Below are positions 16,166-51,133 of a stretch of 57,520 nucleotides of DNA, piece after piece. This DNA comes from Myxococcota bacterium (lineage in GTDB: Bacteria > Myxococcota_A > UBA9160 > SMWR01). Positions within the stretch are counted from its first letter, which is position 1, and each line of letters opens with the position of its first letter. The notes beneath the pieces were generated by a model. It saw only the letters and a program-made list of their open reading frames with translations, ran no database searches and was not told where the DNA came from. Where the stretch lies: positions 1-57,520 of the forward strand of contig DATFWW010000173.1 in the NCBI GenBank assembly GCA_035258825.1, in the 5' to 3' direction. The translations under genes were made by a program, and so were the position numbers.

Positions 16166-16174
16166 GCCTACCTG

Positions 16175-17860: not shown

Positions 17861-17890
17861 GTCGTCGCCCTCCGCGTCCTCGGGATTTAC

Positions 17891-31092: not shown

Positions 31093-31217
31093 CGGAGCCC
31101 CTCTAGTGGTCTTCGAACGGGCAGAATGTCAGGAAATTTCTTGACAGCACCCATTTTTCTGGCAATGTAGGGCCACCGACTGGGAAGGGGCCGCTCCCTA
31201 GCTAGGAGTGAATCCCC

Positions 31218-32972: not shown

Positions 32973-33189
32973 CGCGCAAGCATGGCGCAGCTGAAATGCC
33001 GACACGACCCCGGCGCGCGCGCGCGCAGCGCGCACGCTCTGATGTTGATCGCCCGCGCGCTAACGCTCGCGTCGGCTGCTCGGAGAAGCCAGCCGACGTG
33101 GTGCTGATCACCGCACTCGCGCGCGAGCTGCCGAGCGTCTCATGTGCGAGCCTCGAGATCGTGGCGCGTGCGCACGGCGGCGACATTCC

Positions 33190-33445
33190 CGCGCCCGTGC
33201 TCGCCCACGCGCGGTCGCTCCACCGCGGCGAGGTCTCCTACACGGACGAGAGGGTCGGGCGGCTCGTCTCGGGCATCGAGGCGAAGCGCTGGCTCGACGA
33301 GACGCTCGTCGTGTTCACGGCCGATCACGGAGGGTGCCTCGAGCACCGCGTCTACTTCGAGTACGTGCTCGATCCGGGCCAGATCAGCGAGGAGCTGCGC
33401 GCGTCGCGGCGCGCGCTCGGCTATCTCGAGGTGGGCGAGCGATGA
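33190..33445 (+). pseudogene. Sulfatase gene fragment (central/C-terminal remnant only)
   Basis: Within ORF 32996..33445, ..SLHRGEVSYTDERVGRLVSGIEAKRWLDETLVVFTADHGG matches the conserved sulfatase Y..v.y.D..vG / DHG block. The N-terminal catalytic part is absent. ATGA overlap with the intact sulfatase. Confidence 0.45.
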
Positions 33446-34884
33446 TCTCGCGGCGCCGCTTCCTGCAGGGCCTCGGCGCCGGTGCGGCCGCCGCGGCGCT
33501 GTCGTCGTGCTTTTCGAAGAAGCGCGCGCCCGCCGGCGATCGGCCCAACATCCTGTTCCTGACCGCGGACGACATGGGCTGGGATTCACCCGGATGCTTC
33601 GGCGGCCTCGCGCCCGAGATCACGCCGCACCTCGACGCACTCGCCGCATCCGGCATGCGCTTCGCGCGCGCGCACATCAACATCTCCGTCTGCCAGCCGA
33701 GCCGCGCCGTGATGATGACCGGTCGCTACCCGCACCGGAACGGCGTGACGGGATTCAGGATGGGGGTGGCGGCGGGCGTGCCGACGCTCTCCGAGCTGCT
33801 CGTCGACGCGGGGTACGAGACGGCGCTGCTGGGCAAGGAGTACCACTACCTCCCGCGCGAGAAATACCGCTGGCGCATGGTCGTGGAGTCGCGCCGGCTC
33901 GGCGGCGCGCGCGATCCGGCGATGTTCGCGGCGGCGCTGCGCACGGTGATCCGCCGCGCGAAGGAGGCCGGGCGCCCGTTCTTCATCCACGCCAACTCCA
34001 ACGACCCGCACCGCCCGTTCTACGGCGGCATCTCGGCGCGGCCCGTGGCACCCGGGCCGGCACCCTCGCGCATCTACAAGGCCGGGGAAGTGAAGGTCCC
34101 GGGGTTCCTGCCCGACCTGCCCGAGGTGCGCACCGAGGTGGCCCAGTACTGCTCGTCGGTGCGGCGCCTCGACGACGCGGTGGGCGCCGTGGTCGATGCG
34201 CTCGCCGCAGAACAGGTGGCCGAGCACACGCTCGTGCTGTTCCTGTCCGACAACGGGATGTCGTTCCCGTTCGCGAAGGCGAGCTGTTACTTCGCGAGCA
34301 CGCGCACGCCGCTCGTCGCGGTGTGGCCGGGGCGGATCGCCGCGGGCGCCGTGGACGAAGCGCACCTAGTGTCCGCGGTGGATCTCGCGCCGACGCTGCT
34401 CGAGATCGCGGTCCCCGAGGTGCTCGACAGCGGCTCGCTGGCGCTCGACGGGCGCTCGCTCCTGCCCCTGTTCGGAGGCGGCACCCAGCCGGACCGCGAC
34501 GAGGCGATCGCGACCTTCCACACCACGAGCGCGGGCCGCAGCTACGAGATGCGGGCGGTTTACCACGGCCGCTGGGCGTACATCTGGAATCCCTGGGCCG
34601 ACGGGATGACGGCGTTCCACAGCGAGAGCCAGACGGGCCTCTCGATGCGCGCGATGCGCGAGGCCGCGCGCAGCGACCCCGCGATCGCCGAGCGCGTGCA
34701 GCAGTTCCTGTTCCGCGCGCCCGAGGAGCTCTACGACTTCGTCACGGACCCCAACTCGCTCGTGAACCTCGCGGCCGACTCCGAGCACGCGAGCGACCTC
34801 ACCATGCTGCGCAAACGGCTGGCGAATTGGTTGCACCGGTACGAGGATCCGCTCGAGAAGAGCTTTGCGTCAGTGGCTGGGTAG
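33442..34884 (+). CDS. Tat-exported formylglycine-dependent sulfatase
   Basis: ATG 33442: MISRRRFLQGLGAGAAAAAL (twin-Arg signal), NILFLTADDMGW, SVCQPSRAVMMTGR (CxPxR) and LFLSDNGM. Confidence 0.85.
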   Translation: MISRRRFLQGLGAGAAAAALSSCFSKKRAPAGDRPNILFLTADDMGWDSPGCFGGLAPEITPHLDALAASGMRFARAHINISVCQPSRAVMMTGRYPHRNGVTGFRMGVAAGVPTLSELLVDAGYETALLGKEYHYLPREKYRWRMVVESRRLGGARDPAMFAAALRTVIRRAKEAGRPFFIHANSNDPHRPFYGGISARPVAPGPAPSRIYKAGEVKVPGFLPDLPEVRTEVAQYCSSVRRLDDAVGAVVDALAAEQVAEHTLVLFLSDNGMSFPFAKASCYFASTRTPLVAVWPGRIAAGAVDEAHLVSAVDLAPTLLEIAVPEVLDSGSLALDGRSLLPLFGGGTQPDRDEAIATFHTTSAGRSYEMRAVYHGRWAYIWNPWADGMTAFHSESQTGLSMRAMREAARSDPAIAERVQQFLFRAPEELYDFVTDPNSLVNLAADSEHASDLTMLRKRLANWLHRYEDPLEKSFASVAG

Positions 34885-34886: not shown

Positions 34887-35765
34887 TCACCGCGCGCGGC
34901 GCACCTCGAGCGCGACACCGCCCAGGATCGCGGCCGCGCCGAGCAGCGCGAGCGCGCCCGTGCGCTCGCCGAGGCCGATCGTGCTCGCGGCCAGGCCCAC
35001 GATTGGCTGAACGAAGATCAGCACGCCCATCGTGCCCGCGCGCGTGCGGTGCAGCGCCCAGTTCCACAGCCACGTGACGAGTGCGGTCGAGCTCGCCGCG
35101 AGCACGAACACCCAGATCAGCGCGGGCATCGCCCGCGCGGGATCGATCGACTCGGCGCCCGCGAGCAGCGCGAGCGGCGGCAGTGTTAGCACGACCGCTA
35201 ACAGCGAGACGCTGCCCTCGTCGTGCCGCTCGAGCAGCGATTTGGCGCCGAGCGTGTAGATCGCCCACGCGAGGTGGCCGGCCGCCATCAGCGCATCGCC
35301 GAACGCGTCGCCGAGGTCGGGGCGCAGCCCGTCCTGCAGCACCACGAGCGAGGCGCCGAGCGTGCCGAGCGCCACGCCGATCGCGCGTGCGCGTGGCAGG
35401 CCCTCGGAGAGCAGCAGCGCGCTGCCGAGCACGATCCCGATCGGCTCGAGTGGGGTGAGCAGCGCGTAGGCCACGGCGGTCGAGCGCTGGGCGCCCGTCG
35501 CGAGCAGCAGCTGCGGCAGCGCGAAGCCACCCCACGAGATCAGCAGCAGGAGACCGACGTCGCGCATCGTCCAGGGCGCGGTGCGGACCGGCGCGGCTCG
35601 GCGCCCGATCCGCGCGAGCCCGAACAGGAACACCGCCCCGATCGTCTGGCGCGTGAACACGAGCGTCCATGGCGGCAGCCCCGCGAGCGCGAGCTTGGTC
35701 CAGATGGCGGTGAGGCCGCCGAGCACCTGGGCGAGCAGGGCGGCGGCAAGCACGCGCGGCGGCAT
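34887..35765 (-). CDS. DMT-superfamily (EamA-like) transporter
   Basis: 292-aa ORF with about 10 TM helices and two EamA-like halves. Confidence 0.75.
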   Translation of the reverse strand: MPPRVLAAALLAQVLGGLTAIWTKLALAGLPPWTLVFTRQTIGAVFLFGLARIGRRAAPVRTAPWTMRDVGLLLLISWGGFALPQLLLATGAQRSTAVAYALLTPLEPIGIVLGSALLLSEGLPRARAIGVALGTLGASLVVLQDGLRPDLGDAFGDALMAAGHLAWAIYTLGAKSLLERHDEGSVSLLAVVLTLPPLALLAGAESIDPARAMPALIWVFVLAASSTALVTWLWNWALHRTRAGTMGVLIFVQPIVGLAASTIGLGERTGALALLGAAAILGGVALEVRRAR

Positions 35766-35788
35766 GGCGCGCGCACGTTAGCTCTGGG

Positions 35789-36133
35789 TCAGCGCACGTC
35801 GAGCAGCGCCTTCAGATCCGGCGGGATCTCCATTCGCGCGAAGAACCCCACGTTCGCGCCGCCCGTGTTGCCGCCGGGCGGAATGCCGAGCGCCGAGCCG
35901 ATCGCGGCGGCGGGCACGCGCACGAGCTGTCCGACGATCTCGCGTGGGTCGCGCCGCACGACGCCGATCCGCAGCATCGCGAGGTGCGTGCGCACGTGCG
36001 TCGCGACGTATTGCTGGCCCAGGATGTGCGCGCGCTCCAGGTGGTGGAACGCGCCGTCGAGGTCGCCCGAGCGCCGCAGCGCGTAGGCCGCCGCGAACTC
36101 GGACTCGAATGTGGCGCGCAGCTTGGGGCGCAT
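35789..36133 (-). CDS. DUF3703-like small protein
   Basis: ATG 36133: MRPKLRATFESEFAAAYALRRSGDLDGAFHHLERAHILGQQYVATHVRTHLAMLRIG.., recalled as the DUF3703 pattern. It begins 5 nt after the P450 stop. Confidence 0.55.
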   Translation of the reverse strand: MRPKLRATFESEFAAAYALRRSGDLDGAFHHLERAHILGQQYVATHVRTHLAMLRIGVVRRDPREIVGQLVRVPAAAIGSALGIPPGGNTGGANVGFFARMEIPPDLKALLDVR

Positions 36134-36138
36134 CGCGC

Positions 36139-37380
36139 TCAGGATAGACGAACTCGCAGATGCTCGGGACTGCGGAACGCCATGCCCGTGATGCGCGGGG
36201 GTCGAGAGCGCGGGTCGAGGCGCAGATCGGCGAACCGGTCGAGCAGCGCGTCGATCGCCACCGTCGCCTCGAGGATCGCGAGGCGCGAGCCCGCGCAGTA
36301 GTGGCGGCCGAGGCCGAACGCGAGGTGGGATTCGCCGCGCCGGTCGGCGTCGAAGCGGTCGGGGTCGGGGAACCGGGTCTCGTCGCGGTTGGCGGAGCCG
36401 ATGCCGAGCACGATCTCGCACCCGCGCGGAATCCGCGTGCCCGCGATCTCGACGTCGTCCACCGACATGCGCGAGACGATCTGGATCGGCGATTCCCAGC
36501 GCAGCGTCTCTTCGAGCAGCGCGGCGATCCGCCCGCGGTCGGCCCGCACCGAGCCGAGCAGTTCCGCATCGCGCAGGAGTGCGAACAGCGCGCTGCCGAG
36601 CAGATGATAGGTGGTCTCCGCGCCCGCGAGCACGAGCAGGAACAGGAAGCTGATCACCTCCGGGTCGGACAGATGCTCTCCCTCGACGCTCGCGCTGGCG
36701 AGCTCGCTGATCAGGTCGTTGTGCGGATGCGCGCGCTTCTCCGACACGAGCGGCGCCAGCGCGTCGGTCATCTGCTTCACCGCAGCGAATCCGCGCCCGG
36801 GATCGCAGGCAACCCGCGAGAGGTCGACCGCCCAGTCGTGGAACGTCTTCACGTTCTGCGGTGGGAGCCCGAGGATCTCCGTGAACACGCGCAGGGGATA
36901 CAGGTAGGTGAAGTCCGCGACGAGTTCGGCGGCACCGCGCGCGGCGAACGAGTCGATCACCGCATGCGCGATCGTATCGACGATCTTCGGGAACGCGCCG
37001 CGCAGCGCGCGTGGCGCGAGCGACGGCGTGATCAGGCCGCGGTGCTTGAGGTGCTCCCGGCCGTCCATCCCGATCAGCGTGCGGCCGATCACGATGCCGA
37101 TCCCGCGCTCGATGTTCGAGCGGCTCGAGTAGCGCTCGTGATCCCGCAGCACCGCGACCACGTCGTCGTAGCGCGACACGAAGAACGAGGTGTCGGGGAG
37201 GAACTCGATCACGGGCGTCTCGCGGCGCGCGCGCGCGTAGATCGGGTAGGGATTCTGGATCGGAGCCATCGGCCCGGCGTGGAACAGCTCGGGCACCGTG
37301 AACGGCTGGATCTCCGCGGCGGGTTCGATCGGCGGCGGCGGGAGAGCCGGGTCGAGAGCGACGGCGGCGGTGTCGTCCAT
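36139..37380 (-). CDS. Cytochrome P450
   Basis: ATG 37380 (MDDTAAVALDP..). I-helix LVLAGAETT, ETLRW, and heme loop FGLGRHYCAG. Confidence 0.9.
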   Translation of the reverse strand: MDDTAAVALDPALPPPPIEPAAEIQPFTVPELFHAGPMAPIQNPYPIYARARRETPVIEFLPDTSFFVSRYDDVVAVLRDHERYSSRSNIERGIGIVIGRTLIGMDGREHLKHRGLITPSLAPRALRGAFPKIVDTIAHAVIDSFAARGAAELVADFTYLYPLRVFTEILGLPPQNVKTFHDWAVDLSRVACDPGRGFAAVKQMTDALAPLVSEKRAHPHNDLISELASASVEGEHLSDPEVISFLFLLVLAGAETTYHLLGSALFALLRDAELLGSVRADRGRIAALLEETLRWESPIQIVSRMSVDDVEIAGTRIPRGCEIVLGIGSANRDETRFPDPDRFDADRRGESHLAFGLGRHYCAGSRLAILEATVAIDALLDRFADLRLDPRSRPPRITGMAFRSPEHLRVRLS

Positions 37381-37504
37381 AGGATCAGTGAATGAGAGCC
37401 GTGGAAGTGCTGTCAACGAAAATCGCAGCGGTGTTAGTGCGAAGCGGTAAGAAGGCAGTGCATCGCGCGCGCAGCGGATGTGCAACTCGTTCGCGAACCC
37501 CGCG

Positions 37505-39244
37505 TCATACGAGCCCGAGCTCCGCGAGCCGGGCGAACAGGGCGAGATCTCCCTCGATCGCGAGGCGCCGCGTGCTGAACGCCTCGGCACCCGACAGCTC
37601 GCCGTTCGCGATCCGCAGGTAGCTGGCCGCGTCGGCGCGGAGCGTGGCCCCGGCGTCGGCCCGTTCCGCTTCCGCGCGCTCGACGGTGAGCTGCCCACCG
37701 CGCACCGCGACGATCCACGTTCCGCCGCCCTCGCCCGAGAGTGCGTACTGCACGACGAGGTCGACGCCGTCCGCTTTCGCCGCGTCGAAGTGGCCGGCCA
37801 TCTTTGCGAATAGGTCGTCGATCGAGTCTGCGCGGCGCGCGGCGAGCCGCGCTGCGCGCTCCCGCTCGCTCGCGAGCACGTCGGCCTCCATCGCGGCGAT
37901 CGACTCGGCGAGGATCGCGACGATCGCGTCGGCGCACGCGCGGTCGATCGTGAGCGGCGGCGCCAGGCCCACCACCTCGGTGCCCATCGCGCGCACGTAG
38001 AGCCCGCGCTCCCAGGCCTCCGCCTCCACGCGCGCGCACGCCGAGTGCGGCCGCGAGAAGCCGCGTTTGGTCGCCTTGTCCGCGACCAGCTCGATGCCGA
38101 TCATCAGGCCCACGCCGCGAATCTCGCCGACCGAGTCGAAGCCGCTCAGCACATCGCGCAGGCGCGCGAGCAGATAGGCGCCGACGTCGGCGGCGTTCGC
38201 GGGCAGCCGCTCGCGCTCGATGATGACGAGGTTGGCGAGCGCGGCCGCGCAGCAGGTGGGGTGCCCCATGTAGGTGAAGCCGTGGCTGATCGGCATCTGG
38301 TCCGGCAGCTTCGCGCTGATCGTGCGGTAGATCTCTTCGGAGACGACCGACGCGCCGAGCGGCAGATATCCGCTCGTGATCCCCTTCGCGAGCGTGACCA
38401 CGTCGGGACGCACGCCGTAGCGCTCGAAGCCGAACATCGTCCCCGTGCGCCCGAACCCCGTGACGACCTCGTCGAGGATCAAGAGGATCCCGTGGCGGTC
38501 GCAGATGTCGCGGATGCGCGTGAAGTAGTCGTCGGGAGGCGGGATGATGCCGCCCGCGCCGAACACGGGCTCGGCGATGAACGCGGCGATCGTGTCGGCA
38601 CCTTCTCGCTCGACGAGGCGCTCGAGATCGTCGGCACATGCGAGCCGGCAGCTAGGGTACGTCTTGCCGAGCTCGCACTTGTAGCAGTAGGGCGCCGCGA
38701 CGTGAGCGAAGCCGGGCGCCTCGGGGCCGAAGTTCCAGCGCATCGGCATGATGCCGGTAGCCGTCATCGTGGCGATCGTGAGCCCGTGATAGGCGTGGTG
38801 GCGCGCGACGATCTTGGTGCGGCGCTCCTCGCCGCGCATCGCGCGGTACAGCCGCACGAGCTTGATGCTGGTCTCGTTCGCCTCCGAGCCCCCCGACGAG
38901 AACATCACATAGGAGAGGCCGTACTCGGGCGGGAACATCGCGCACAGCTTCTCGGCCAGCTCGATCGCACGCGGATGCGACTGGCCGTGGAAGGTCGTGG
39001 AGTACTCGAGCGTCTCCATCTGCTCGCGCACGGCCGCGGCGATCTCGCGGCGGCCGTGCCCGACCGCCGTGCACCAAAGCCCGGCGAATCCGTCGATCAG
39101 GCGCCGGCCGCGGTCGTCGGTGATCCACCAGCCGTCGCCCGCGACCACCACGCGCGCGCCGTCGCGCTCCATCTCGCGCGGCGGCGTGAGCGGATGGATC
39201 AGGTGGGCAGCGTCACGCGCGGCGAGGTCGGTCTTCTCGTGCAT
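37505..39244 (-). CDS. Class III (omega) aminotransferase fused to a C-terminal SCP2 sterol/lipid-carrier domain
   Basis: ATG 39244 (MHEKTDLAARDAAHLIHP..). SSGGSEANE, LILDEVVTGFGRTG and TLAKGITSG (PLP Lys). The last ~105 aa, DDLFAKMAGHFDAAKADGVDLVVQYALSGEGGGTWIVAVRGGQL..GELSGAEAFSTRRLAIEGDLALFARL, form an SCP2 pattern. Confidence 0.8.
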   Translation of the reverse strand: MHEKTDLAARDAAHLIHPLTPPREMERDGARVVVAGDGWWITDDRGRRLIDGFAGLWCTAVGHGRREIAAAVREQMETLEYSTTFHGQSHPRAIELAEKLCAMFPPEYGLSYVMFSSGGSEANETSIKLVRLYRAMRGEERRTKIVARHHAYHGLTIATMTATGIMPMRWNFGPEAPGFAHVAAPYCYKCELGKTYPSCRLACADDLERLVEREGADTIAAFIAEPVFGAGGIIPPPDDYFTRIRDICDRHGILLILDEVVTGFGRTGTMFGFERYGVRPDVVTLAKGITSGYLPLGASVVSEEIYRTISAKLPDQMPISHGFTYMGHPTCCAAALANLVIIERERLPANAADVGAYLLARLRDVLSGFDSVGEIRGVGLMIGIELVADKATKRGFSRPHSACARVEAEAWERGLYVRAMGTEVVGLAPPLTIDRACADAIVAILAESIAAMEADVLASERERAARLAARRADSIDDLFAKMAGHFDAAKADGVDLVVQYALSGEGGGTWIVAVRGGQLTVERAEAERADAGATLRADAASYLRIANGELSGAEAFSTRRLAIEGDLALFARLAELGLV

Positions 39245-39245
39245 C

Positions 39246-40061
39246 TCAGCGGCGTCCCCTCTTCGCCCGCGCGTCGATCGTGCTGCGCCGCACGGCGCGC
39301 CGCATGAACCCGGGTGCAAACGCCTGGATGACGTAGGCCGGTGAAATTCCGCCCGGGTAGGTGATCTCGTGCTTGCCCTTGGCGAGCGCGTCGATCATCG
39401 CGTCGACGAGCCCTTCGACCTCCACCATGCCCTTCTTCGCGGCCGGCGGCATGCGCGACAGGGCCTCCTCGTCGAAGAACGGCGTGCGGATCACGCCCGG
39501 GCACACGGTGAGCACGTGTACGCCGGCGTCTTCGACCTCGATCGACAGCGACCCCGCGAGCCCGACCATGGCGAACTTGGTGGCTGCGTACGCTGACTCC
39601 TCGGGCGGCGCGATCTTGCCCGCCACCGACGCGACGAACACGACCCAGCCGCGGCGCTGCTCGACCATCGACGGCAGCAGCGCCTTCGTGAAGTACACGG
39701 AGCCGAGATAGTTCACGCGCATCATCCGCTCGATGTCTTCGAGCGACCACTCGAGGAAGGTGCGGTGATGCCCGTAGCCCGCGTTGTTCACGAGCAGGTC
39801 GATGCCGCCCCACACCTCGCGCGTGCGCATGGCGGTGTCCGCCACCTGCTTGGCCTCGGCCACGTCGCAGGGCAGCACCATGGTCTCGCCGCCGCCGACG
39901 CGGATCTCTGCCGCGAGTCGCTCGAGCTCGTCCGCGCGCCGCGCGACCAGCGCCACGCGCGCGCCCTCGCGCGCGAGGCGCAGCGCGAGCGCGCGGCCGA
40001 TCCCGCTCGATGCGCCGGTCACGAGCGCCCGCAGCCCCTTGTACGAGCGCAGCTGGGTCAT
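39246..40061 (-). CDS. Short-chain dehydrogenase/reductase (SDR)
   Basis: 271-aa ORF with LVTGASSGIGRA, NNAG and YAATKFA. There is a 1-nt gap to the downstream aminotransferase. Confidence 0.85.
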   Translation of the reverse strand: MTQLRSYKGLRALVTGASSGIGRALALRLAREGARVALVARRADELERLAAEIRVGGGETMVLPCDVAEAKQVADTAMRTREVWGGIDLLVNNAGYGHHRTFLEWSLEDIERMMRVNYLGSVYFTKALLPSMVEQRRGWVVFVASVAGKIAPPEESAYAATKFAMVGLAGSLSIEVEDAGVHVLTVCPGVIRTPFFDEEALSRMPPAAKKGMVEVEGLVDAMIDALAKGKHEITYPGGISPAYVIQAFAPGFMRRAVRRSTIDARAKRGRR

Positions 40062-40711
40062 CGGCCGGCCTCCACCAACGCGAGGATCACCGACTGGAGA
40101 TGCTGCTTGGTGCGCTCGCGGATGCGCGGATCGGACAGGTCCTTGCCGAACAGCTTCCTGTAATGCGCGGTCGAAAGGATGTGGTGGTGCAGGATGCCCT
40201 CCACGGTGATCAACAGGAGCCCGAGGTCGTGCTTCATGGCGCCGAGCTTCTGGTCGGCCATCGACCGGTCGATGAACTGCACCCAGCTCTGCTCCTGGAG
40301 CGAGACGCCCTTCGCGAGCCCCTCGCCGAGTGCGGCGCGCACCGTCAGTGTCACCCAGCTGCGCTTCTCGAGGAAGAAGTCGAACAGCTCGTCGACCACC
40401 TTCTCCACGATCGTCGCAAGGTCGCTCTGGCCCGCCACCACCGCGCCCACGCGCGCGAGGATCTCGTCGTCCCAGCGCGACAACACCGCCTGGTAGAGGC
40501 CCGGCTTCGAGCCGAAATGGTGCTGGATCGTGAACGGGCGCACGCCGCAGGCGCGCGACAGCTCGCGCACCGAGACGCCGCGGTAGCCGCGGCGGGCGAA
40601 CAGGATCTCCGCGCGGTCGAGGATCCGCGTGCGCGTGCGCTCGGCCTCCGCCTGCGAGCGCCGGCCCGCGGCGCGTGCGGCCGAATTCCGATTGCGTTTC
40701 TTATTGGCCAC
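40058..40711 (-). CDS. TetR/AcrR-family transcriptional regulator
   Basis: GTG 40711 (VANKKRNRNSAARAAGRR..). HTH region ILDRAEILFARRGYRGVSVRELSRACGVRPFTIQHHFGSKPGLY. ATGA overlap with the SDR start. Confidence 0.8.
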   Translation of the reverse strand: MANKKRNRNSAARAAGRRSQAEAERTRTRILDRAEILFARRGYRGVSVRELSRACGVRPFTIQHHFGSKPGLYQAVLSRWDDEILARVGAVVAGQSDLATIVEKVVDELFDFFLEKRSWVTLTVRAALGEGLAKGVSLQEQSWVQFIDRSMADQKLGAMKHDLGLLLITVEGILHHHILSTAHYRKLFGKDLSDPRIRERTKQHLQSVILALVEAGR

Positions 40712-40792
40712 GTGTACAGTAAAACACCGCGCGCCTTCCGAGTCAACGCGCATCGCTTCGAACCCCGATCGAACCCCCAGTCCGGAGACCGA

Positions 40793-42043
40793 ATGCGCGC
40801 GCTCGTGATCGGCAACGACATGCCGCGGCTCGCCGCCACGAGACTGCTTGGCGCGATCACACCGCGCGCGTTCGTCGGCCCGTTCGCGCCGGTCCAGCTG
40901 CGCGAGATCCCGGCACCGGTACTGCCCGCGCCCGACTGGGCGGTCGCGCGCACGCTTCTCTGCGGGCTGTGCGGCAGCGATTACAAGCAGGTTTTCATGA
41001 ATGGCGCGTTCGACAACCCGATGACCGCGATGATCTCGTGGCCGCAGGTGCTCGGGCACGAGGTGGTCGGCGTGATCGACGAGGTCGGCGCGGGCGTGGA
41101 GCGGCGCAGCATCGGCGAGCGCGTGGTGCTTAACCCGTGGCTGTCGTGCGCCACGCGCGGCCTGCCGCTGTGCAACTGGTGCGAGGAGGGCGACTACGCG
41201 CAGTGCCTGAATTTCGGGCGCGGCCACGCGGCGCGCGGCATCCACACCGGGAACAGCGCGACCGCCACGGGCGGCTTCGCGCCCCGTGTGCCCGCCCACG
41301 AATCGCAGTGGCTCGCGATCCCCGACGCGGTCGGCGACGACGCCGCGGTGCTCGCCGATCCGTTCTCCGTGTCGCTGCACGCCATCCTGCGCACGCCGCC
41401 GCCGCCCGGCGGCACCGCGCTCGTGTACGGCGCGGGCACGCTCGGCCTGCTCGCGATGGCGATCCTGCGCGCGATCCACCCGCACGTGCGCGTGGTCGCG
41501 GTGGCGCGCTTCGATCACCAGGCACGGCTCGCGGAGAAGTTCGGCGCGGAGCGCGTGCTGCCGCACCGGCCCGCGCGCTCGGTGATCGAGTCGATCGCGG
41601 AGCTGTGCGGCGCAGAGATCGCGCGGCCGTGGCGCGGCCTGCCGATGCTGCTCGGCGGCGCGGACGTAATCTACGACACCGTGTCGTCGCCCGAGACGCT
41701 CGAGGTCGGGCTGCGGATCGCAAACATACGCGGGAGCATCGTGGCGCTCGGCGTCGAGCCGCCGCGCCGCTTCGAGTGGACGCCGCTCTACTTCAAGGAG
41801 CTCTCGATCGTCGGCTCGAACGGCTTCGGGATCGAGGAATACGACAATCGCCGCCAGCACGCGATGGAGTGGTACTTCGAGTTCCTGCGCGCGAAGCAGA
41901 TCGACGTCAAGCCGATCATCACCCACCGCTTCCCGCTCGGGCGCTACCGCGACGCGTTCATGACCTGCTATGCGCAGGGGGAACACGGGGCGGTCAAGGT
42001 ATTGTTCGACCGATTCAGCGACGACGAGGAGAGTACGAGATGA
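40793..42043 (+). CDS. Zn-dependent medium-chain dehydrogenase/reductase (MDR)
   Basis: ATG 40793 (MRALVIGNDMPRL..) with CGLCGSDYK, GHEVVGVIDEVG and YGAGTLGLLA. Confidence 0.8.
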   Translation: MRALVIGNDMPRLAATRLLGAITPRAFVGPFAPVQLREIPAPVLPAPDWAVARTLLCGLCGSDYKQVFMNGAFDNPMTAMISWPQVLGHEVVGVIDEVGAGVERRSIGERVVLNPWLSCATRGLPLCNWCEEGDYAQCLNFGRGHAARGIHTGNSATATGGFAPRVPAHESQWLAIPDAVGDDAAVLADPFSVSLHAILRTPPPPGGTALVYGAGTLGLLAMAILRAIHPHVRVVAVARFDHQARLAEKFGAERVLPHRPARSVIESIAELCGAEIARPWRGLPMLLGGADVIYDTVSSPETLEVGLRIANIRGSIVALGVEPPRRFEWTPLYFKELSIVGSNGFGIEEYDNRRQHAMEWYFEFLRAKQIDVKPIITHRFPLGRYRDAFMTCYAQGEHGAVKVLFDRFSDDEESTR

Positions 42044-45000
42044 GCCGGCTGCTCTTGGGAATCGATCTCGGAGGCGGCAGCGTCCGCTGCGTGCTGCTGG
42101 ACGCCGAGACGGCCGTGGTCTGGGAGTCTGCGCTCGCGATCGGCTCGCACCCCGCTGAGGCCGGCGGCGGGCTCGGCTACGACCTCGCCACCGACGCGCT
42201 CTGGGAGAGCGTCGGGCTCGCCGCGCGCGGCGCGCTCGCGCGCGCGGGTGCCGTGCCGGAAGACGTGGCCGGCGTGGCGGTCACCGCGATGCGCTTCGCG
42301 TCGGTGCTGCTCGACGCCGCGGGCGAGGTGCTGTTCGCGGTGCCGAACCGCGACGCGCGCTCGATCGGCGAGGCGATGCGGATCGCCGCGGAGCGCGGGG
42401 ACGCGGTGCTCGCCGCGACCGGGATGTGGCCGCTGCCGATCCACGCGTCGGCGCGCCTCGCGTGGCTGCGCAGCGCGCGGCCCGAGCTGTTCGATCGCGC
42501 CGCCACCCTGCTCTCGCTCTCCGACTGGCTGAACTATCGCCTGTGCGGGGACCGGATCACCGACTACTCGCAGGCGGGCTGCACGGGCTTGTTCGACCTG
42601 GGGCGGCGCGAGTGGAGCGCAGACCTGATCGACGCGATCGGCCTCCCGCGCGCGATCTTTCCGGAGGCGCGCCCGTCGGGCGAGCGGATCGGCGAGCTCG
42701 ACGCGCGCGCGGCGCAGCATCTCGGGCTCGCGGCCGGAACGCCCGTCTCGCTCGGCGGAGGCGACACGCGCTGCGGGCTGCTCGGTGCGGGCGCGGTCGC
42801 GGACGGCGACGTCGGCCTCGTCGCGGGCACCACCGCGCCGCTCGAGCGCGTGCTCTCCGAGCCCGTGATCGACGCCGAGGGCCGCCTGCGCAGCGGACAC
42901 CACGCAATGCCGGGGTGTTTCGTGCTCGAGGCGAACGTCGGCCCGGTGGGCGAGGGCCTCGCGTGGCTCGCGCGGCTGCTGCACCCGGACGACGCGCGTC
43001 CCGAGGAGCGCTTCAGCGCGGAGGCGTCGACCGCCGCGGTGGGCTCCGCCGCGATGCTCGCGAACATCGGCGCGCTGATCGCCAACGATCGTCAGCCCGC
43101 CTTCCCCGTCGCCTCGTTCGCGCTCTCGCACATGACGGGCACGCAGGGCCGCGCCGCGCGCGCGAGCCTCGCCCGCTCGGCGCTCGAGGGCACGGCGTGC
43201 GCCGTGCGCGCGAACCTCGAGCAGCTCGCCCGCGTGCTCGGCAGCGGCGCCGAGCGCGTGCACCTCGCGGGCGGGCTCTCGCGCAGCGCGCTGTTCGCGC
43301 GGATCCTCGCGGGCGTCACGGGCTGCGAGGTGGTGCGCGCAGCGGCGCCCGAAGCCACCGGGCTCGGCGCGGCGCTGTGCGCGGGCGTCGGCGCAGGTGT
43401 GTACGGCGACGTGCTCGAGGCGGCGCGCAAGGGCGTGCGCGCGGGCGAGGTGGTGGAGCCCGTCGCCGGCGAGGCCGCTGCGTACGAGCAGCTCTATCGC
43501 GACTGGAGCGAGCTGCGCGCTGCGGGTGAGCAGTCCACCGCGCCGATCGCGATGCGCCACACGGTCCCGGTTGCACTCGCGGCCGCGCAGCGCACGGGCC
43601 GCCGCGCGTCGCCAGCGCACCGGCCCAAGGCACTCGTCACGGCGGCGTTCGACGATGCGTCGATCGCGAAGCTGCGCGGCTTCGCCGACGTGGAGTACGC
43701 GAGCTTCCGCGACCGCATGCAGCTGCTCACGGGGCCGAGCCTCGTGAAAGCGCTCGAGGGCTGCGAGGTGCTCGTCACCGAGGTGGACGTCGTCGATGCG
43801 AAGGCGCTCGAGAAGCTCCCGAATCTGCGCGTGGTAGCGGCGTGCCGCGGCGACGCCGTGAACGTGGACGTCGCGGCGTGTACCGCGTTCGGCATCCCCG
43901 TGCTGTTCGCGCCCGGCCGCAACGCCGACGCGGTCGCCGATCTCACCGTCGCGTTCCTGCTCAACCTCGCCCGGCGCCTGCCCGCCGCGACCCGGTTCCT
44001 GGCCGACCCCGCCATCACCGCGGGCAACCTCGCTGCGATGGGCAAGGCGTTCCGCGGCCTGCAGGGCTACGAGCTCTGGTCGAAGACGGTCGGCCTCGTC
44101 GGCCTCGGCTCGGTCGGGCGCGCGGTGGCGCGCCGGCTCTCGGGCTTCGGCGTGCGCCTGCTGGTGGCGGATCCGTTCGTGTCCGTCGAGCAGGCCGTGC
44201 TCGCGGGCGCCGAGAAGGTCGAGCTCGCAGAGCTCTTGCGCGAGAGCGACTTCGTGAGTCTGCACGCAGCGGTCACCGACGCGACGCGCGGCCTGCTCGG
44301 CGCGGACGAGTTCGCCGCGATGAAGCCGGGCGCATACCTGATCAACACCGCACGCGCGGCGCTCCTCGACGAAGCCGCGCTCGTCGCCGCGCTCGACTCG
44401 GGCCATCTCGCGGGCGCGGCGCTCGACACGTTCGCCGTGGAGCCGCCCGGCGCCGACCATCCGCTCGTGCGCCACGGCAGCGTGATCCACACGCCGCACG
44501 TCGGCGGCAACACGAACGAGGTCGCGGCGCATCAGGGCCGGATCATCGCCGACGGACTCGAGCAGCTGCTGTGCGGGGAGGCGCCGCGCTGCATCCTCAA
44601 TCCCGAGACGCTCGCGGGCTTCTCGTGGACGGGTCCGCGCCGCGTGCCGACCGCCGACGAGCTCGCCGCGCTCGCCCGGCGCGCAGGCCCCGCGGTGTCC
44701 GACCTCCAGCGCGACGCGCAGGCCGAGGCGCAGCAGGAGAAGCTCGACGAGAGCGCGGCACCCGCCGAGATCGTGGCGGCGATGAAGCGGATCCTCGAGG
44801 CGTTCACGGCCGCCATGGCGAAGGACGACCGCGTGCGCGAGTTCAGCGCCGACAAGGACGTCGCGCTCTACTTCGTGCTGCCCGACGTGGGACTCGACCT
44901 CCACATCGCGCTGCGCGAAGGGAACGTCGCGGGCGGGCTCGGCAAGCCGGACGGCGGGTCGGTGGTCCAGTTGCGCATGCGCGCGGCGATCCTCGACGGG

Positions 45001-45879
45001 ATGTTCACGGGCAAGGTGAACGCGATGGAAGCCGCGATGCAGGGTGAGGTCGCGTTCACGGGCGACGCCGGCAAGGCGATGGCGATCCAGCAGATGCAGG
45101 GCGACATGCGGCGCCTCTACACCGCGGCGCGCGCGCAGCTGGGCGACCCGGGTGATCTCGCAAGTCTCGCGCAGCGAGCCGAAGGCGAGCGAAGGCCATC
45201 GGGGTCGATCCCGCAGCCGGGCGCGCCCGTGAAGCCCGTCGGCGGCAACGACATCCGCGCCGAGATCGTCGCGGTCACCCGGGAGCTCTACGAGATCCAG
45301 GTAATCACCGCGACGGGCGGCAACGTGTGCGCGCGGATCCCCGGCGCGCCGGATCAGGTGTGGATCACGCCGAGCCAGCTGTTCAAGGGCGATCTGCGCC
45401 CCGAGGTGCTGGTGCGGATCGACCTCGACGGCAAGTCGCTCGACGAGGGTGCGCGCTCGCCCTCCTCCGAGTGGAGCATGCACACCCAGATTCTCAAGAA
45501 GAAGCCCGAGGCCAAGGCGGTGATCCACGCCCATGCGCCGTACGCCACCACGCTCGCCAACGCGGGCCTGCCATTCCTGCCGATCAGCACCGAGGCCGCG
45601 TTCTTCGGCGACATCCCGCGGGTGCCGTTCATCATGCCGGGCACCGACGCGCTCGCTGAGGCAGTCTCGGAGGCGATGAAGGAGAGCTGGGCCGTGTTCA
45701 TGGTGAACCACGGGCTCGTGGTGGCGGGGCGAAGCTTGCGCCGCGCGGCCGACATGGTGGAGATCGTGGAGCGCTCGGCTCAGCTGATCCTCGGCTGCTA
45801 CGCGGTGGGCAAGGAGCCGCCCGTGCTGCCCGAGAAGACGGTCAAGATGCTGCGCAAGATGGGAGATCTCGTGGCGTGA
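42040..45879 (+). CDS. 1279-aa four-domain fusion: FGGY carbohydrate kinase / D-2-hydroxyacid dehydrogenase / SCP2 / class II aldolase-adducin domain
   Basis: ATG 42040 (ATGA overlap with the MDR stop), one uninterrupted frame. FGGY: LLLGIDLGGGSVR..GGGDTRCG..LAGGLSRS (about aa 1-495). 2-HADH: VGLVGLGSVGRAVARRL..INTARAALLD..HTPHVGG (about aa 530-860). SCP2: about aa 905-1035. Aldolase_II: ..VIHAHAPYATTLA..MVNHGLVVAG (about aa 1070-1279). Confidence 0.85.
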   Translation: MSRLLLGIDLGGGSVRCVLLDAETAVVWESALAIGSHPAEAGGGLGYDLATDALWESVGLAARGALARAGAVPEDVAGVAVTAMRFASVLLDAAGEVLFAVPNRDARSIGEAMRIAAERGDAVLAATGMWPLPIHASARLAWLRSARPELFDRAATLLSLSDWLNYRLCGDRITDYSQAGCTGLFDLGRREWSADLIDAIGLPRAIFPEARPSGERIGELDARAAQHLGLAAGTPVSLGGGDTRCGLLGAGAVADGDVGLVAGTTAPLERVLSEPVIDAEGRLRSGHHAMPGCFVLEANVGPVGEGLAWLARLLHPDDARPEERFSAEASTAAVGSAAMLANIGALIANDRQPAFPVASFALSHMTGTQGRAARASLARSALEGTACAVRANLEQLARVLGSGAERVHLAGGLSRSALFARILAGVTGCEVVRAAAPEATGLGAALCAGVGAGVYGDVLEAARKGVRAGEVVEPVAGEAAAYEQLYRDWSELRAAGEQSTAPIAMRHTVPVALAAAQRTGRRASPAHRPKALVTAAFDDASIAKLRGFADVEYASFRDRMQLLTGPSLVKALEGCEVLVTEVDVVDAKALEKLPNLRVVAACRGDAVNVDVAACTAFGIPVLFAPGRNADAVADLTVAFLLNLARRLPAATRFLADPAITAGNLAAMGKAFRGLQGYELWSKTVGLVGLGSVGRAVARRLSGFGVRLLVADPFVSVEQAVLAGAEKVELAELLRESDFVSLHAAVTDATRGLLGADEFAAMKPGAYLINTARAALLDEAALVAALDSGHLAGAALDTFAVEPPGADHPLVRHGSVIHTPHVGGNTNEVAAHQGRIIADGLEQLLCGEAPRCILNPETLAGFSWTGPRRVPTADELAALARRAGPAVSDLQRDAQAEAQQEKLDESAAPAEIVAAMKRILEAFTAAMAKDDRVREFSADKDVALYFVLPDVGLDLHIALREGNVAGGLGKPDGGSVVQLRMRAAILDGMFTGKVNAMEAAMQGEVAFTGDAGKAMAIQQMQGDMRRLYTAARAQLGDPGDLASLAQRAEGERRPSGSIPQPGAPVKPVGGNDIRAEIVAVTRELYEIQVITATGGNVCARIPGAPDQVWITPSQLFKGDLRPEVLVRIDLDGKSLDEGARSPSSEWSMHTQILKKKPEAKAVIHAHAPYATTLANAGLPFLPISTEAAFFGDIPRVPFIMPGTDALAEAVSEAMKESWAVFMVNHGLVVAGRSLRRAADMVEIVERSAQLILGCYAVGKEPPVLPEKTVKMLRKMGDLVA
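45168..45198 (+). repeat. GCGAAG-rich short repeat, in-frame copy in the SCP2-aldolase linker
   Basis: cgcgcagcgagccgaaggcgagcgaaggcca encodes ..AQRAEGERRPS.. Compare FAQRGEAERRPDG in the SWIM gene and the intergenic copy at 27477. Confidence 0.6.
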
Positions 45880-45886
45880 GGCGTGC

Positions 45887-46771
45887 ATGACCGCGCAAGG
45901 AGACGGCGTCGCTGCCGCGGTGATCGCGGCGTGCCTCTACAACCTCGCGGTCGTCGTCCAGAAGTCGCAGGCCGAAGTCGTCGCCGAGACCGGCGTGGCG
46001 ATTCTCGGCCCGCTGATGGCGCGCCCGGTCTGGCTCGTCGGCGTGGCGATCCAGGTAGTCGGGCTCGTCTTCCACGGCTTCGCGCTCACCGCGGCACCCG
46101 TCACGGTCGTGCAGCCAATCATCGCGAGCGGCATCGCGTTCCTCGTGCTGTTCGCGGCGCTGATCCTGCGCGAGCGCCCGTCGCCGCGCGAGATCTTCGG
46201 GATGCTCCTCGCGGTGTCGGGTGTGAGTCTGCTCGCGCTGCAGATCGAGGGGCCGGTTTCGCTCGCGCCGCTCGACGCAGAGGACTTCGCCTATGCGATC
46301 GCGAGCGCTGCGGCGCTCGCGGGTGCCCTCTGGTGGTTCGGTCGCTCGTGGCGCGTCGCGTCGACCAGCGTGGGCGCGGCGCTGGTCGGTGCCGCTGCCG
46401 GCGTGGGACAGGGCATGAGCGACGCGATGAACCGCCTCGCGGGCGCCTGGTTCGCGCCGCACGGCTGGGCTCCGCCGACGGGGATCATGTGCGCGGCGCT
46501 CGCGTTCCTGCTCTTGTTCGGGCTCCAGGGGTTCGTCGCGGCGCAGAACGCCTTCCAGCGCTACCGCGCCAACACCGTGGTTCCGTGCATGCTCACCGCG
46601 CAGCTGTTCGTGCCGGTCGCGATGGCGATCATCCTGTTCGGCCAACCCGGTCCGCGCGACGGCGAAGACGCCGGCGTGTGGATCCTCGCGCTGGCGCTCA
46701 CGTTCGCGGGGATCGTCTCGCTCGCGCGCGCGCCGGCCGTCGAACGCACGCTCGGGAACTCGGCGAACTGA
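45887..46771 (+). CDS. Membrane permease, NIPA/EamA-like (DMT superfamily)
   Basis: 294-aa ORF with about 9 TM helices, beginning 7 nt after the fusion gene. The family call is tentative. Confidence 0.55.
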   Translation: MTAQGDGVAAAVIAACLYNLAVVVQKSQAEVVAETGVAILGPLMARPVWLVGVAIQVVGLVFHGFALTAAPVTVVQPIIASGIAFLVLFAALILRERPSPREIFGMLLAVSGVSLLALQIEGPVSLAPLDAEDFAYAIASAAALAGALWWFGRSWRVASTSVGAALVGAAAGVGQGMSDAMNRLAGAWFAPHGWAPPTGIMCAALAFLLLFGLQGFVAAQNAFQRYRANTVVPCMLTAQLFVPVAMAIILFGQPGPRDGEDAGVWILALALTFAGIVSLARAPAVERTLGNSAN

Positions 46772-46835
46772 ATCCTCGGCTGGGCCGGCCGCCCGCGCCA
46801 CCGCGCCTCTCGGCGATCGCGCCGACACCACAGAG

Positions 46836-48074
46836 TCATCCACGCGCGCCCGGTGCCACCTCCCACCGCAGCGGGGCGCGCTTGATGCCGCCTACGAACG
46901 ACGAGCGCACGCGTGCCACCGGGCCCGCGAGCTCCGCGCGCACGAGGCGCGTGCGCAGCTCCTCGAACACGGCGCGGATCTCGAGGCGCGCGAGGTGCGC
47001 GCCGAGACAGACGTGCTCGCCGCGCCCGAAGCCGACGTGGTCGTTGGGCTGGCGGTCGATCCGGAACGCGCCGCCGTCGGGGAAGATCTCCTCGTCGCGA
47101 TTGGCCGACGGATAGAACAGGCACAGCGACTGCCCGGCTCGGATCGCCCGTCCGCGCAGCGTCAGGTCTGCGGCCGCGGTGCGGCAGAACTGGATCACGG
47201 GCGTCGTCCAGCGCACGATCTCCTCGATCGCGGGCGTCACGAGTGCCCGGTTCTCCTGGAGCCGCTTCCATTCGCCCGGGTTGTCGAGGAACGCCAGCAT
47301 GCCGCCCGTCATTGCGTTGCGGGTGGTCTCGTTGCCGGCCACCACGAGCAGGAACAGGTAGGAGAGCAGCTCGACCGGAGGCAGCGCGCGGCCGTCGACG
47401 GCGCCGTTCGCCACCTCGCTCACGATGTCGTCGCCGGGCTGGCGGCGGCGCCGCTCGGCGAGGTCGTTGAAGTACGCGAACACCTCCATGCGCGCGCCCT
47501 CGAGGGTCTTCTGCTTGTCGCCCTCGCGCTGGAACTCGGGGTCCTCGGGCGCGATGATCTCGTTGGTCCAGCGGAAGATCAGCGGCCAGTCGCGCTCGGG
47601 CATGCCCAGCATCAGCGCGATCACCGCAATCGTGATCGGCGCGGAGACGTCCTTCACGAAGTCGATCTCTTCGCGCTGTGCCGCTGCGTCGATCACGTCG
47701 CGCGTGATCTGCCGCACCTTGGGCTCCCAGCCCTGCACCGCGCGCGGAGTGAAGCGCTTGCTCGCCACCTGGCGGTATTTCGCGTGATCGGGTGGATCCA
47801 TGTTGAGCAGGTGGCGAGACACGCCCTCCTCCGGCGGCGGCACCGAGTTGTCGAACACGGCGAGGCGCGGGGCGTTCTGCAGCAGCTTGGGGTGCTTGCT
47901 CAGCCAGACGATGTCGGAGTGCTTGGTCACGGCCCAGAACGGATCGAAGCGCGGCCGCTCGTACCAGACGAGCGGCGCGTGCTGGCGCAGCCAGCTCCAT
48001 TCGGGGTGCGGATAGCCGTGCTCTTCGTAGTGCTCCGGCGAGGCGATGTCGATCGTCGAGAGGTCGAAGGTCAT
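46836..48074 (-). CDS. Cytochrome P450 (CYP125/142-like pattern)
   Basis: 412-aa ORF with LLNMDPPDHAKYRQVASKRFTPRAV, VVAGNETT, EIVRW, and heme loop FGRGEHVCLG. Confidence 0.9.
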   Translation of the reverse strand: MTFDLSTIDIASPEHYEEHGYPHPEWSWLRQHAPLVWYERPRFDPFWAVTKHSDIVWLSKHPKLLQNAPRLAVFDNSVPPPEEGVSRHLLNMDPPDHAKYRQVASKRFTPRAVQGWEPKVRQITRDVIDAAAQREEIDFVKDVSAPITIAVIALMLGMPERDWPLIFRWTNEIIAPEDPEFQREGDKQKTLEGARMEVFAYFNDLAERRRRQPGDDIVSEVANGAVDGRALPPVELLSYLFLLVVAGNETTRNAMTGGMLAFLDNPGEWKRLQENRALVTPAIEEIVRWTTPVIQFCRTAAADLTLRGRAIRAGQSLCLFYPSANRDEEIFPDGGAFRIDRQPNDHVGFGRGEHVCLGAHLARLEIRAVFEELRTRLVRAELAGPVARVRSSFVGGIKRAPLRWEVAPGARG

Positions 48075-49710: not shown

Positions 49711-49713
49711 CCG

Positions 49714-51132: not shown

Positions 51133-51133
51133 G

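Follow-up and report, generated by a model that had tools for sequence, protein, structure and literature searches.

A TetR-centred gene cluster with two SCP2-tagged enzymes in a Myxococcota genome, and its possible role in breaking down a hydrophobic compound with a polyol or amino-polyol tail

The stretch analysed here, hereafter called the window, is the whole 57,520-nucleotide (nt) stretch of contig DATFWW010000173.1 from a Myxococcota bacterium (GenBank assembly GCA_035258825.1). Its G+C content is about 71%, and Rfam and tRNA scans found no RNA features in it. We studied a cluster between positions 34887 and 48074, which is centred on a gene for a TetR-family regulator and encodes two enzymes that each carry an SCP2 domain. 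Genes were called from open reading frames (ORFs) and from statistics of GC at the third codon position (GC3). The results showed ten genes in the cluster, each a high-GC3 ORF.

The minus-strand arm begins with the TetR-family gene (40058..40711, 217 amino acids [aa], GTG start; Pfam TetR_N 2e-12 and a weak match to TetR_C_29). It continues with a classical short-chain dehydrogenase/reductase (SDR; 39246..40061, 271 aa, adh_short 3e-55) and with a class III aminotransferase that has a C-terminal SCP2 domain (AT::SCP2; 37505..39244, 579 aa, Aminotran_3 8e-101, SCP2 1.2e-11). These are followed by a generic CYP107/109-like cytochrome P450, "P450a" (36139..37380, 413 aa, p450 3e-29), a DUF3703 protein (35789..36133, 114 aa, DUF3703 6e-37), and a DMT/EamA-family transporter (34887..35765, 292 aa, EamA 2e-28). 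The TetR and SDR genes overlap by ATGA (40058-40061), 1 nt separates the SDR from AT::SCP2, and the gaps on either side of the DUF3703 gene are 5 nt toward P450a and 23 nt toward the DMT gene. The most likely start of P450a is the ATG at 37380, so that 124 nt lie between it and the AT::SCP2 stop at 37505; the corresponding gap is 115 nt in a close relative, L001 (L numbers denote loci fetched from other genomes; L001 and L004 are the same contig). On the plus strand, a Zn-dependent medium-chain dehydrogenase/reductase (MDR) of the polyol/threonine-dehydrogenase type (40793..42043, 416 aa, ADH_N and ADH_zinc_N) overlaps by ATGA (42040-42043) with the gene for a four-domain fusion enzyme (42040..45879, 1279 aa; FGGY_N/C, 2-Hacid_dh(_C), SCP2, and Aldolase_II). 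After 7 nt comes a membrane protein referred to here as the permease (45887..46771, 294 aa), which has high GC3 and is distantly DMT/NIPA-like, with sub-threshold matches to EamA, NIPA, and TMEM234. A second cytochrome P450, "P450b" (46836..48074, minus strand, 412 aa, p450 4e-19), of the CYP125/CYP124 clan, is convergent with the plus arm. This bidirectional layout had been proposed in a preliminary description of the window, and its coordinates, overlaps, and gaps were all as given there, the start of P450a being the sole correction. The domain assignments made there agreed with our Pfam scan of the ten proteins, including both SCP2 domains (45.3 and 29.6 bits, against a Pfam gathering threshold of 21.3 bits for PF02036), and the CYP125-like label given to P450b was supported by a score of 370 bits to an ancestral CYP125.

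The two arms diverge from the 81-nt TetR/MDR intergenic region (40712..40792). In an alignment, a block at about 40715-40748 (GTACAGTAAAACACCGCGC...GTCAA) was kept in L001 and in a second relative, L005, and the remaining spacer diverged; the block is a candidate operator or promoter. The region also contains a weak palindrome, GTGT-N8-ACAC. A search that included sigma-70 promoters and terminators found no strong palindromic operator and no sigma-70 consensus match in 40712-40792. In L003, a TetR-family gene lies upstream of a P450 gene and a fusion gene, and its product is 30% identical to the TetR of the window, with a likewise weak match to TetR_C_29.

The fusion enzyme consists of an FGGY kinase (residues 1-500; FGGY_N 7e-40 and FGGY_C 4e-19), a D-2-hydroxyacid dehydrogenase (about 530-860; 2-Hacid_dh_C 6e-53), an SCP2 domain (about 905-1030; 9e-7, with the 29.6 bits falling on residues 944-1019), and a class II aldolase (about 1070-1279; Aldolase_II 2e-46). 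Residue conservation was examined in an alignment of 24 diverse homologues, down to 48% identity. In the kinase, D9, G11, and G12 of the DxGxxxxR phosphate loop and the catalytic D242 were invariant, as were G685, G688, G690, and D711 of the NAD-binding GxGxxG region and the triad R772, E801, and H820 in the dehydrogenase, and N1095, S1142, S1143, E1144, H1163, H1165, and H1224 in the aldolase. In Escherichia coli FucA, the three zinc-binding histidines (H92, H94, and H155), the catalytic E73, and the phosphate-binding N29, S71, and S72 all aligned to invariant residues of the fusion. The SCP2 region carried invariant residues as well. The best Protein Data Bank (PDB) matches by domain were LsrK (5ya0, 197 bits) for the kinase, phosphoglycerate dehydrogenase (PGDH; 1ygy/3ddn) for the dehydrogenase, and DrdA (6btd) and FucA (1fua) for the aldolase. 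None of the NCBIfam equivalog cut-offs for such enzymes was reached: the scores were 243.5 bits against 528 for LsrK, 212.6 against 454 for PGDH (TIGR01327), and 109.8 against 264 for FucA, and the cut-off for XylB was likewise far from met. AlphaFold (AF2) models were built using homologue alignments. In the model of the fusion, a helix/five-strand alpha/beta domain of the SCP2 type was predicted with confidence, followed by a predicted disordered linker to the aldolase. The modelled aldolase domain superposed on FucA and on DrdA, which is a 5-deoxyribulose-1-phosphate aldolase, with TM-scores of 0.87-0.90, and YgbL/OtnC was also among its structural matches. When the SCP2 and aldolase part of the model was used for a fold search, the aldolase domain filled the hit list, and no independent structural match to SCP2 emerged.

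Homologues of the fusion were then sought in a collection of 5.8 billion proteins, in which 210 were found at an E value of ≤1e-10. The architecture was read in the best 120 of the 210; all had the same one, with SCP2 annotated in 113. Their automatic names were [quoted passage not shown] "AI-2 kinase" (AI-2, autoinducer-2), and "class II aldolase/adducin family." When each GTDB species was represented by one genome, a scan gave at least 558 stretches that encode a relative of the fusion, a count that is a lower bound. The hosts included Myxococcota and "delta proteobacterium" metagenome-assembled genomes (MAGs), Halieaceae (Halioglobus and Haliea), Sphingomonadaceae, Binatia, Chloroflexota (Anaerolineae and Bellilinea caldifistulae), Mycobacterium persicum, and Actinomycetota. 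By these comparisons, the four-domain fusion represents a large, widespread, and uncharacterised family; literature searches on an FGGY/class II aldolase/SCP2 fusion returned no relevant paper. Mycobacterium tuberculosis Rv0727c-Rv0729 are presumably adjacent, unfused fucA, serA2, and xylB genes, an arrangement on which a literature search returned nothing relevant.

In AT::SCP2, the SCP2 domain (45.3 bits) covers residues 490-575, and the AF2 model predicts this part, residues 475-575, with confidence. The best PDB match of the protein was 6io1 (442 bits), followed by omega-transaminases of the amine:pyruvate type. The catalytic lysine for pyridoxal phosphate, Lys287, was invariant in the alignment of homologues. 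SCP2 was present in 117 of the best 120 homologues, all of which were at least 63% identical, and those with a source name came from Acidimicrobiia or Actinobacteria MAGs. No NCBIfam equivalog cut-off was reached by this protein either. AT::SCP2 is thus a second widespread uncharacterised family, and it has a conserved module of its own, TetR-SDR-AT::SCP2. The family could find use as a transaminase for bulky hydrophobic amines. The Pfam family Alkyl_sulf_C weakly matched both SCP2 regions of the cluster, and BLASTP between the two SCP2 domains gave no significant similarity. A common origin of the two domains was rejected on that ground, and the two were taken to have been acquired independently. 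Bacterial genomes generally have few SCP2 genes; as a rough reckoning on that basis, two SCP2 proteins within 7 kb are unlikely to have come together by chance.

The remaining enzymes are less specific. The nearest NCBIfam models of the MDR were those of YdjJ-type, Tdh, IolM, and idonate/galactitol-1-phosphate dehydrogenases, all below cut-off. The scan covered all ten cluster proteins, and the sole cut-off that any of them reached was that of a generic SDR model, PRK06181 (215 bits versus 215), which names no function. P450a had its best PDB match in 6gmf (227 bits). P450b scored about 252-257 bits to CYP124 and 252 to CYP125A1, in addition to its match to ancestral CYP125, and by these scores probably belongs to the CYP125/CYP124/P450terp group, in which CYP125 and CYP124 are terminal hydroxylases acting on the chains of steroids and of methyl-branched lipids.

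To see which genes belong together, 80 fusion loci were fetched and compared with the ten window proteins by tblastn. The whole cluster was seen only in close relatives, at protein identities of 77-88%. L001/L004 held nine of the ten genes, with the permease replaced by a DUF6151 gene and a fusion that was 84% identical. L005 (77% identity) lacked exactly P450a and AT::SCP2 and kept the DMT, DUF3703, SDR, TetR, MDR, and fusion genes. At about 998-1827 of this locus, the DUF3703 gene runs directly into the SDR gene, a natural deletion variant. Among the 80 loci, the DMT gene was syntenic only in L001 and L005 and P450b only in L001 (86% identity); for P450b, the permease, DMT, and DUF3703, synteny was limited to close relatives. 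An MDR 65% identical to that of the window was found in L061. The TetR-SDR-AT::SCP2 module occurred in three distant genomes (L084, L085, and L086) without the four-domain fusion, the adjoining SDRs being 36-40% identical to that of the window. In L085, a divergent 410-aa MDR, 48% identical to the window MDR, lay beside this module, and the presence of a window-type MDR there ties the two arms together. In L087, AT::SCP2 was found among RPE65, Rieske, P450, SDR, and Amidohydro_2 genes. Since the whole cluster is limited to close relatives while its modules recur apart, it is a lineage-specific joining of independently conserved modules and not one co-conserved pathway. The preliminary description had treated the genes as one unit, which did not hold: the full set was found only in L001/L004, and elsewhere only sub-modules were seen. 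It had also regarded SCP2 on these enzyme types as previously unseen. The fusions are not unique to the window, both belonging to large families, and the novelty held in that no curated family or paper describing them was found.

We then looked at what surrounds the fusion in the 80 loci by de novo clustering of ORFs, from which antisense artefacts were removed; in these high-GC loci, several of the top "families" consisted of ORFs antisense to the fusion gene, and these were discarded. Of the 80 loci, 26 had an acyl-CoA synthetase gene, which mostly lay just downstream of the fusion and on its strand. P450 genes were found in 19, directly upstream of the fusion in Myxococcota, where the order is TetR, P450, fusion, and acyl-CoA synthetase, and a KshA-type Rieske oxygenase (193 bits to KshA) was also found in 19. 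Acyl-CoA dehydrogenases, often as adjacent pairs, and Amidohydro_2 proteins, nearest to PtmU3/DitZ, each occurred in 15 loci, a small VOC protein in 12, and an SCPx-type thiolase with DUF35 in 9. A CoA-transferase III, an RPE65 oxygenase, and a pyrroloquinoline quinone (PQQ) dehydrogenase were found in fewer loci than the thiolase. P450a-type copies lay within about 12 kb of the fusion in Halieaceae (47-54% identity) and directly upstream of it in Myxococcota (35-41%). TonB receptors were present among the catabolic gene sets around fusion homologues. Flanks of 6 kb or more were available in 62 loci, and 29 of these had at least one neighbour family of a lipid type. Pfam-annotated neighbourhoods taken from the assembly index agreed with the clustering result. 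According to Pfam scans, the CoA ligase, the paired acyl-CoA dehydrogenases, the KshA-like oxygenase, and the Ltp/DUF35 thiolase are absent from the window and present around distant homologues of the fusion. In M. persicum (L019, 1268-11284), the fusion lies near an NAD-epimerase/3-beta-hydroxysteroid-dehydrogenase-like reductase, a wax-ester synthase/diacylglycerol acyltransferase, and a methyltransferase, a lipid context of a different kind. A Chloroflexota operon contained genes for a GntR/UTRA regulator, an aldehyde:ferredoxin oxidoreductase, a class III aminotransferase, an M28 peptidase, an NAD-dependent reductase, and the fusion; therefore, in a distant phylum the fusion is again accompanied by an aminotransferase and by an enzyme that oxidises aldehydes. 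Among the isolated Halieaceae are cholesterol degraders (PMC5790920).

We propose, with a probability of roughly 0.45, that the window contains a catabolic cluster under TetR control whose substrate is a hydrophobic compound with a polyol or amino-polyol tail, and which is made up of two independently conserved modules that share the 81-nt region. The phosphate acceptor of LsrK is a terminal CH2OH that adjoins a CHOH, PGDH oxidises a CHOH beside CH2-O-phosphate, and FucA and DrdA cleave a ketose-1-phosphate to dihydroxyacetone phosphate (DHAP) and an aldehyde. By analogy, the LsrK-like FGGY kinase of the fusion would phosphorylate an R-CHOH-CHOH-CH2OH tail at its terminal primary hydroxyl, the PGDH-like NAD-dependent dehydrogenase would oxidise the neighbouring secondary hydroxyl to give R-CHOH-CO-CH2OP, and the FucA/DrdA-like zinc aldolase would cleave this ketose-1-phosphate-like end to DHAP and R-CHO, while the hydrophobic portion of the substrate would be bound by the internal SCP2 domain. 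For the sorbitol-dehydrogenase-type MDR, whose gene is translationally coupled to that of the fusion, two roles can be considered: oxidation of a hydroxyl in a ring or in the tail, or provision of the keto form. AT::SCP2 and the SDR would convert an amino variant from amine to carbonyl to alcohol, which would then enter the fusion cassette; P450a would add a hydroxyl, and passage of substrate or product through the membrane would fall to the DMT proteins. In genomes other than this one, oxidation of the aldehyde would be followed by activation by the downstream acyl-CoA synthetase and by entry into a steroid-type side-chain beta-oxidation. The three-step cassette is proposed because the active sites are conserved and the order of the domains equals that of the reactions. 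The remainder of the substrate, R, is probably hydrophobic in view of the SCP2 domain and the lipid-type neighbours, and the direction is taken as catabolic because the kinase would spend ATP on activating the substrate. The acyl-CoA synthetases of aerobes and the aldehyde:ferredoxin oxidoreductase of anaerobic Chloroflexota would suit an aldehyde product undergoing oxidation followed by activation. The preliminary description had suggested an undescribed pathway for a hydrophobic substrate bearing polyol or amine groups. No NCBIfam family and no paper was found in which the cluster or its proteins are placed in a known pathway, and such a substrate is probable.

If the proposal is right, sugar-style kinase/dehydrogenase/aldolase chemistry would clip a three-carbon DHAP unit off the polar tail of a hydrophobic molecule, a new type of lipid-catabolic step, and this step would be carried by a very widespread protein (at least 558 stretches in at least five phyla). 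It would offer a tractable route to the breakdown of polyol-tailed lipids such as hopanoids, to the role of SCP2 on non-thiolase enzymes, and to the targets of the steroid-type clusters of Halieaceae and Myxococcota.

Several observations weigh against this proposal. Tyr113 of FucA, which belongs to the aldehyde site, is unmatched and aligns to an Ile in the fusion. D-2-hydroxyacid dehydrogenases normally need a carboxylate beside the hydroxyl, and the conserved Arg772 could be a sign that the substrate is a 2-hydroxy acid; the reactions would then follow another order. The cluster of the window encodes neither an aldehyde dehydrogenase nor an acyl-CoA synthetase nor a P450 redox partner. About half of the loci had no lipid-type neighbours. 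In three Chloroflexota loci (L046, L053, and L056), the gene just upstream of that for the fusion encodes a SorC/DeoR-type regulator with a "Sugar-bind" domain, as would suit a soluble substrate resembling a sugar, and in L088 and L090 the fusion homologues lie amid housekeeping genes. Finally, the two arms may act on different compounds, because most occurrences of the AT::SCP2 module lack the fusion and, conversely, AT::SCP2 is missing from L005 although its fusion arm is retained. Two further features of these loci are recorded here. The SorC-type regulator hints at the sensing of a sugar-phosphate-like intermediate, and a Peptidase_C93 gene follows the fusion immediately downstream on the opposite strand in L088 (14663-15370) and L090 (13880-14653).

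The last objection leads to an alternative in which the arms are unrelated modules that happen to abut, with TetR-SDR-AT::SCP2 (plus P450a, DUF3703, and DMT) acting on one hydrophobic amine or ketone, the MDR and the fusion acting on another polyol, and the shared SCP2 being coincidental. This is a somewhat unlikely explanation, although it accounts for AT::SCP2 being found with the SDR and TetR in Acidimicrobiia/Actinobacteria without the fusion, for the hundreds of genomes that have the fusion and no AT::SCP2, for the loss of P450a and AT::SCP2 alone in L005, and for the lack of sequence relationship between the two SCP2 domains. It leaves unexplained why both arms share a single TetR and the 81-nt region, and why an MDR orthologous to the one that is translationally coupled to the fusion in the window joins the AT::SCP2 module in L085. 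Moreover, a class III aminotransferase shares an operon with the fusion in Chloroflexota, and in L087 AT::SCP2 sits amid RPE65, Rieske, P450, and Amidohydro_2 genes, as are found around the fusion in Halieaceae.

It is also conceivable, and in our view improbable, that the fusion is an ordinary soluble enzyme for a sugar or sugar acid (a pentulose, a deoxy-sugar, a tetronate, or an AI-2-like dione), with SCP2 as a mere spacer and no lipid involved. The nearest relatives of its domains (LsrK, XylB, PGDH, FucA, DrdA, and OtnC/YgbL) act on small sugars, yet the scores fall far under the equivalog cut-offs of LsrK, XylB, PGDH, and FucA. The source annotations read "AI-2 kinase" and "sugar kinase," and the SorC-type regulators mentioned above, GntR/UTRA regulators in other Chloroflexota loci, and the housekeeping context of L088 and L090 would also suit a sugar. 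However, no sugar isomerase, phosphotransferase system, or sugar ABC transporter surfaced in the 80-locus survey or in the Pfam neighbourhoods, where many neighbouring ORFs were never annotated; the recurrent partners were instead acyl-CoA synthetase, P450, KshA-type oxygenase, acyl-CoA dehydrogenases, and the thiolase/DUF35 pair. In addition, an SCP2 domain with invariant residues was retained across phyla. A biosynthetic cluster, in which the aldolase would join DHAP to a fatty or terpenoid aldehyde and tailoring would yield an amino-polyol lipid or signal that is exported by DMT and sensed by TetR, is very improbable: TetR, P450, SDR, and exporters are a common layout of signalling-lipid loci such as those for gamma-butyrolactone and avenolide, class II aldolases are reversible, and the aminotransferase could install an amine instead of removing it, but a kinase and not a phosphatase is fused to the aldolase, catabolic genes surround the homologues (CoA ligase, acyl-CoA dehydrogenases, thiolase, KshA-like oxygenase, and TonB receptors), and the window has no synthase for the hydrophobic part.

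Under the catabolic proposal, several substrates can be considered. Removal of the side chain of bacteriohopanepolyols by the fusion is improbable as a specific assignment, and phytosphingosine-type bases, bile alcohols, and other polyol-tailed terpenoids are equally allowed. Bacteriohopanetetrol (the 32,33,34,35-tetrol) would offer exactly the terminal tetrol that the model needs: it would be phosphorylated at C35, oxidised at C34, and, by a cut between C32 and C33, split into DHAP and a C32 hopanoid aldehyde. AT::SCP2 and the SDR would first turn 35-aminobacteriohopanetriol into the tetrol, and the acyl-CoA synthetase, paired acyl-CoA dehydrogenases, and thiolase/DUF35 beside the homologues would shorten the C32 acid like a steroid side chain. 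Periodate ("Rohmer") cleavage of tetrafunctionalised hopanoids yields bishomohopan-32-ol (PMC12583986), which has the same carbon number as the proposed aldehyde. A literature search found no paper on hopanoid catabolic genes. If the hopanoid assignment were true, this would be the first hopanoid catabolic pathway, and it would give an enzymatic origin for sedimentary C32 hopanoic acids and hopanols. Phytosphingosine-type bases (2-amino-1,3,4-triols) would fit after transamination at C2, and bile alcohols and arylglycerols would be further candidates. Lignin-derived arylglycerols (Ar-CHOH-CHOH-CH2OH, giving vanillin and DHAP) were considered in view of the nearby RPE65 and Amidohydro_2 genes and were ranked lower, because the Rieske neighbour is of the true KshA type and the Amidohydro_2 protein is nearer to the diterpenoid-CoA enzymes PtmU3/DitZ than to LigW.

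Other genes of the window surround the cluster. Genes for beta-lactamase-family serine hydrolases flank it on both sides (29929-31128 and 48415-49713, both on the minus strand), and both are also present in L001; their products could be esterases or amidases by which the substrate is released from an acylated form. Between the first of them and the DMT gene lie a GtrA-like gene (32571-33059) and, adjoining it, a gene for a sulfatase with a twin-arginine (TAT) signal (33142-34884, plus strand). This stretch is absent at the corresponding place in L001, and the sulfatase would be of interest if the substrate were a lipid or bile alcohol that bears sulfate. The cluster is directly followed, in L001 as well, by a pair of genes for a SWIM zinc-finger protein and a DUF3670/SNF2 helicase (49714-54352, minus strand), which are probably unrelated to it. 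An operon-like group at 13822-17893 (minus strand) encodes an FAD_binding_2 oxidoreductase, a luciferase-like monooxygenase, and an Amidohydro_3 protein. In L085, luciferase-like monooxygenase and Amidohydro_3 genes adjoin the MDR-SDR-TetR-AT::SCP2 module (856-6090), and because they occur in both places these families may be linked to it. Farther away, at 2103-11408 (plus strand), genes for a tryptophan-halogenase-like flavoenzyme (2103-3428), a flavin amine oxidase (3032-4966), an aromatic amino-acid ammonia-lyase (8555-10162), and a UbiE-type methyltransferase (10623-11408) may form a small aromatic secondary-metabolite locus.

The cluster can be compared with several known systems. In the SCPx thiolase, in MFE-2, and in the SdsA1-type alkyl sulfatase, an SCP2-fold domain is appended to an enzyme for a hydrophobic substrate, as is proposed for both proteins of the cluster; an omega-transaminase and a kinase/dehydrogenase/aldolase were not among the partners in the described SCP2 fusions found in the literature and NCBIfam. 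The cluster for bile-salt side-chain degradation in Sphingobium sp. strain Chol11 has the CoA ligase SclA, a heteromeric acyl-CoA dehydrogenase, a KshA-like Rieske oxygenase, "amidases," and thiolase-superfamily proteins, and its cleavage mechanism is unexplained (bioRxiv 10.1101/2021.05.19.444901). In the main text of that paper, neither "kinase" nor "sterol carrier" occurs, and aldolases come up only in connection with other organisms and with their absence from cluster 2 (bioRxiv 10.1101/2021.05.19.444901). This gene set largely overlaps the surroundings of the fusion in Halieaceae and some Myxococcota, with Amidohydro_2 in place of the "amidases"; unlike the Chol11 cluster, the window has no genes for CoA ligases, acyl-CoA dehydrogenases, Rieske oxygenases, or thiolases. 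Among solved structures and among curated families alike, LsrK gives the best match to the kinase domain of the fusion, but the score is under half of the equivalog cut-off, no lsr genes are near, and the "AI-2 kinase" labels are automatic. In the erythritol route of Brucella, the kinase EryA is followed by the polyol-phosphate dehydrogenase EryB, a flavoprotein, and in the tetronate route the kinase OtnK (DUF1537) is followed by OtnC, a decarboxylase of the class II aldolase family, to give DHAP. As a comparison from general knowledge, these routes share the logic proposed for the fusion, in that a polyol or acid sugar is phosphorylated, oxidised beside the phosphate, and broken between C3 and C4 to give DHAP, and they differ in having no SCP2 domain and no lipid context. 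The FucK-FucA, RhaB-RhaD, and DrdK-DrdA pairs, from the L-fucose, L-rhamnose, and 5-deoxyribose routes, resemble the scheme proposed for the fusion in that an FGGY-type ketose kinase acts on a terminal hydroxyl adjoining a carbonyl and a zinc class II aldolase then yields DHAP and an aldehyde. Unlike in these pairs, the keto group would be made by the fused dehydrogenase and not by an isomerase, three enzymes and an SCP2 domain are joined in one polypeptide, and the neighbouring genes are of the lipid/steroid type rather than sugar genes.

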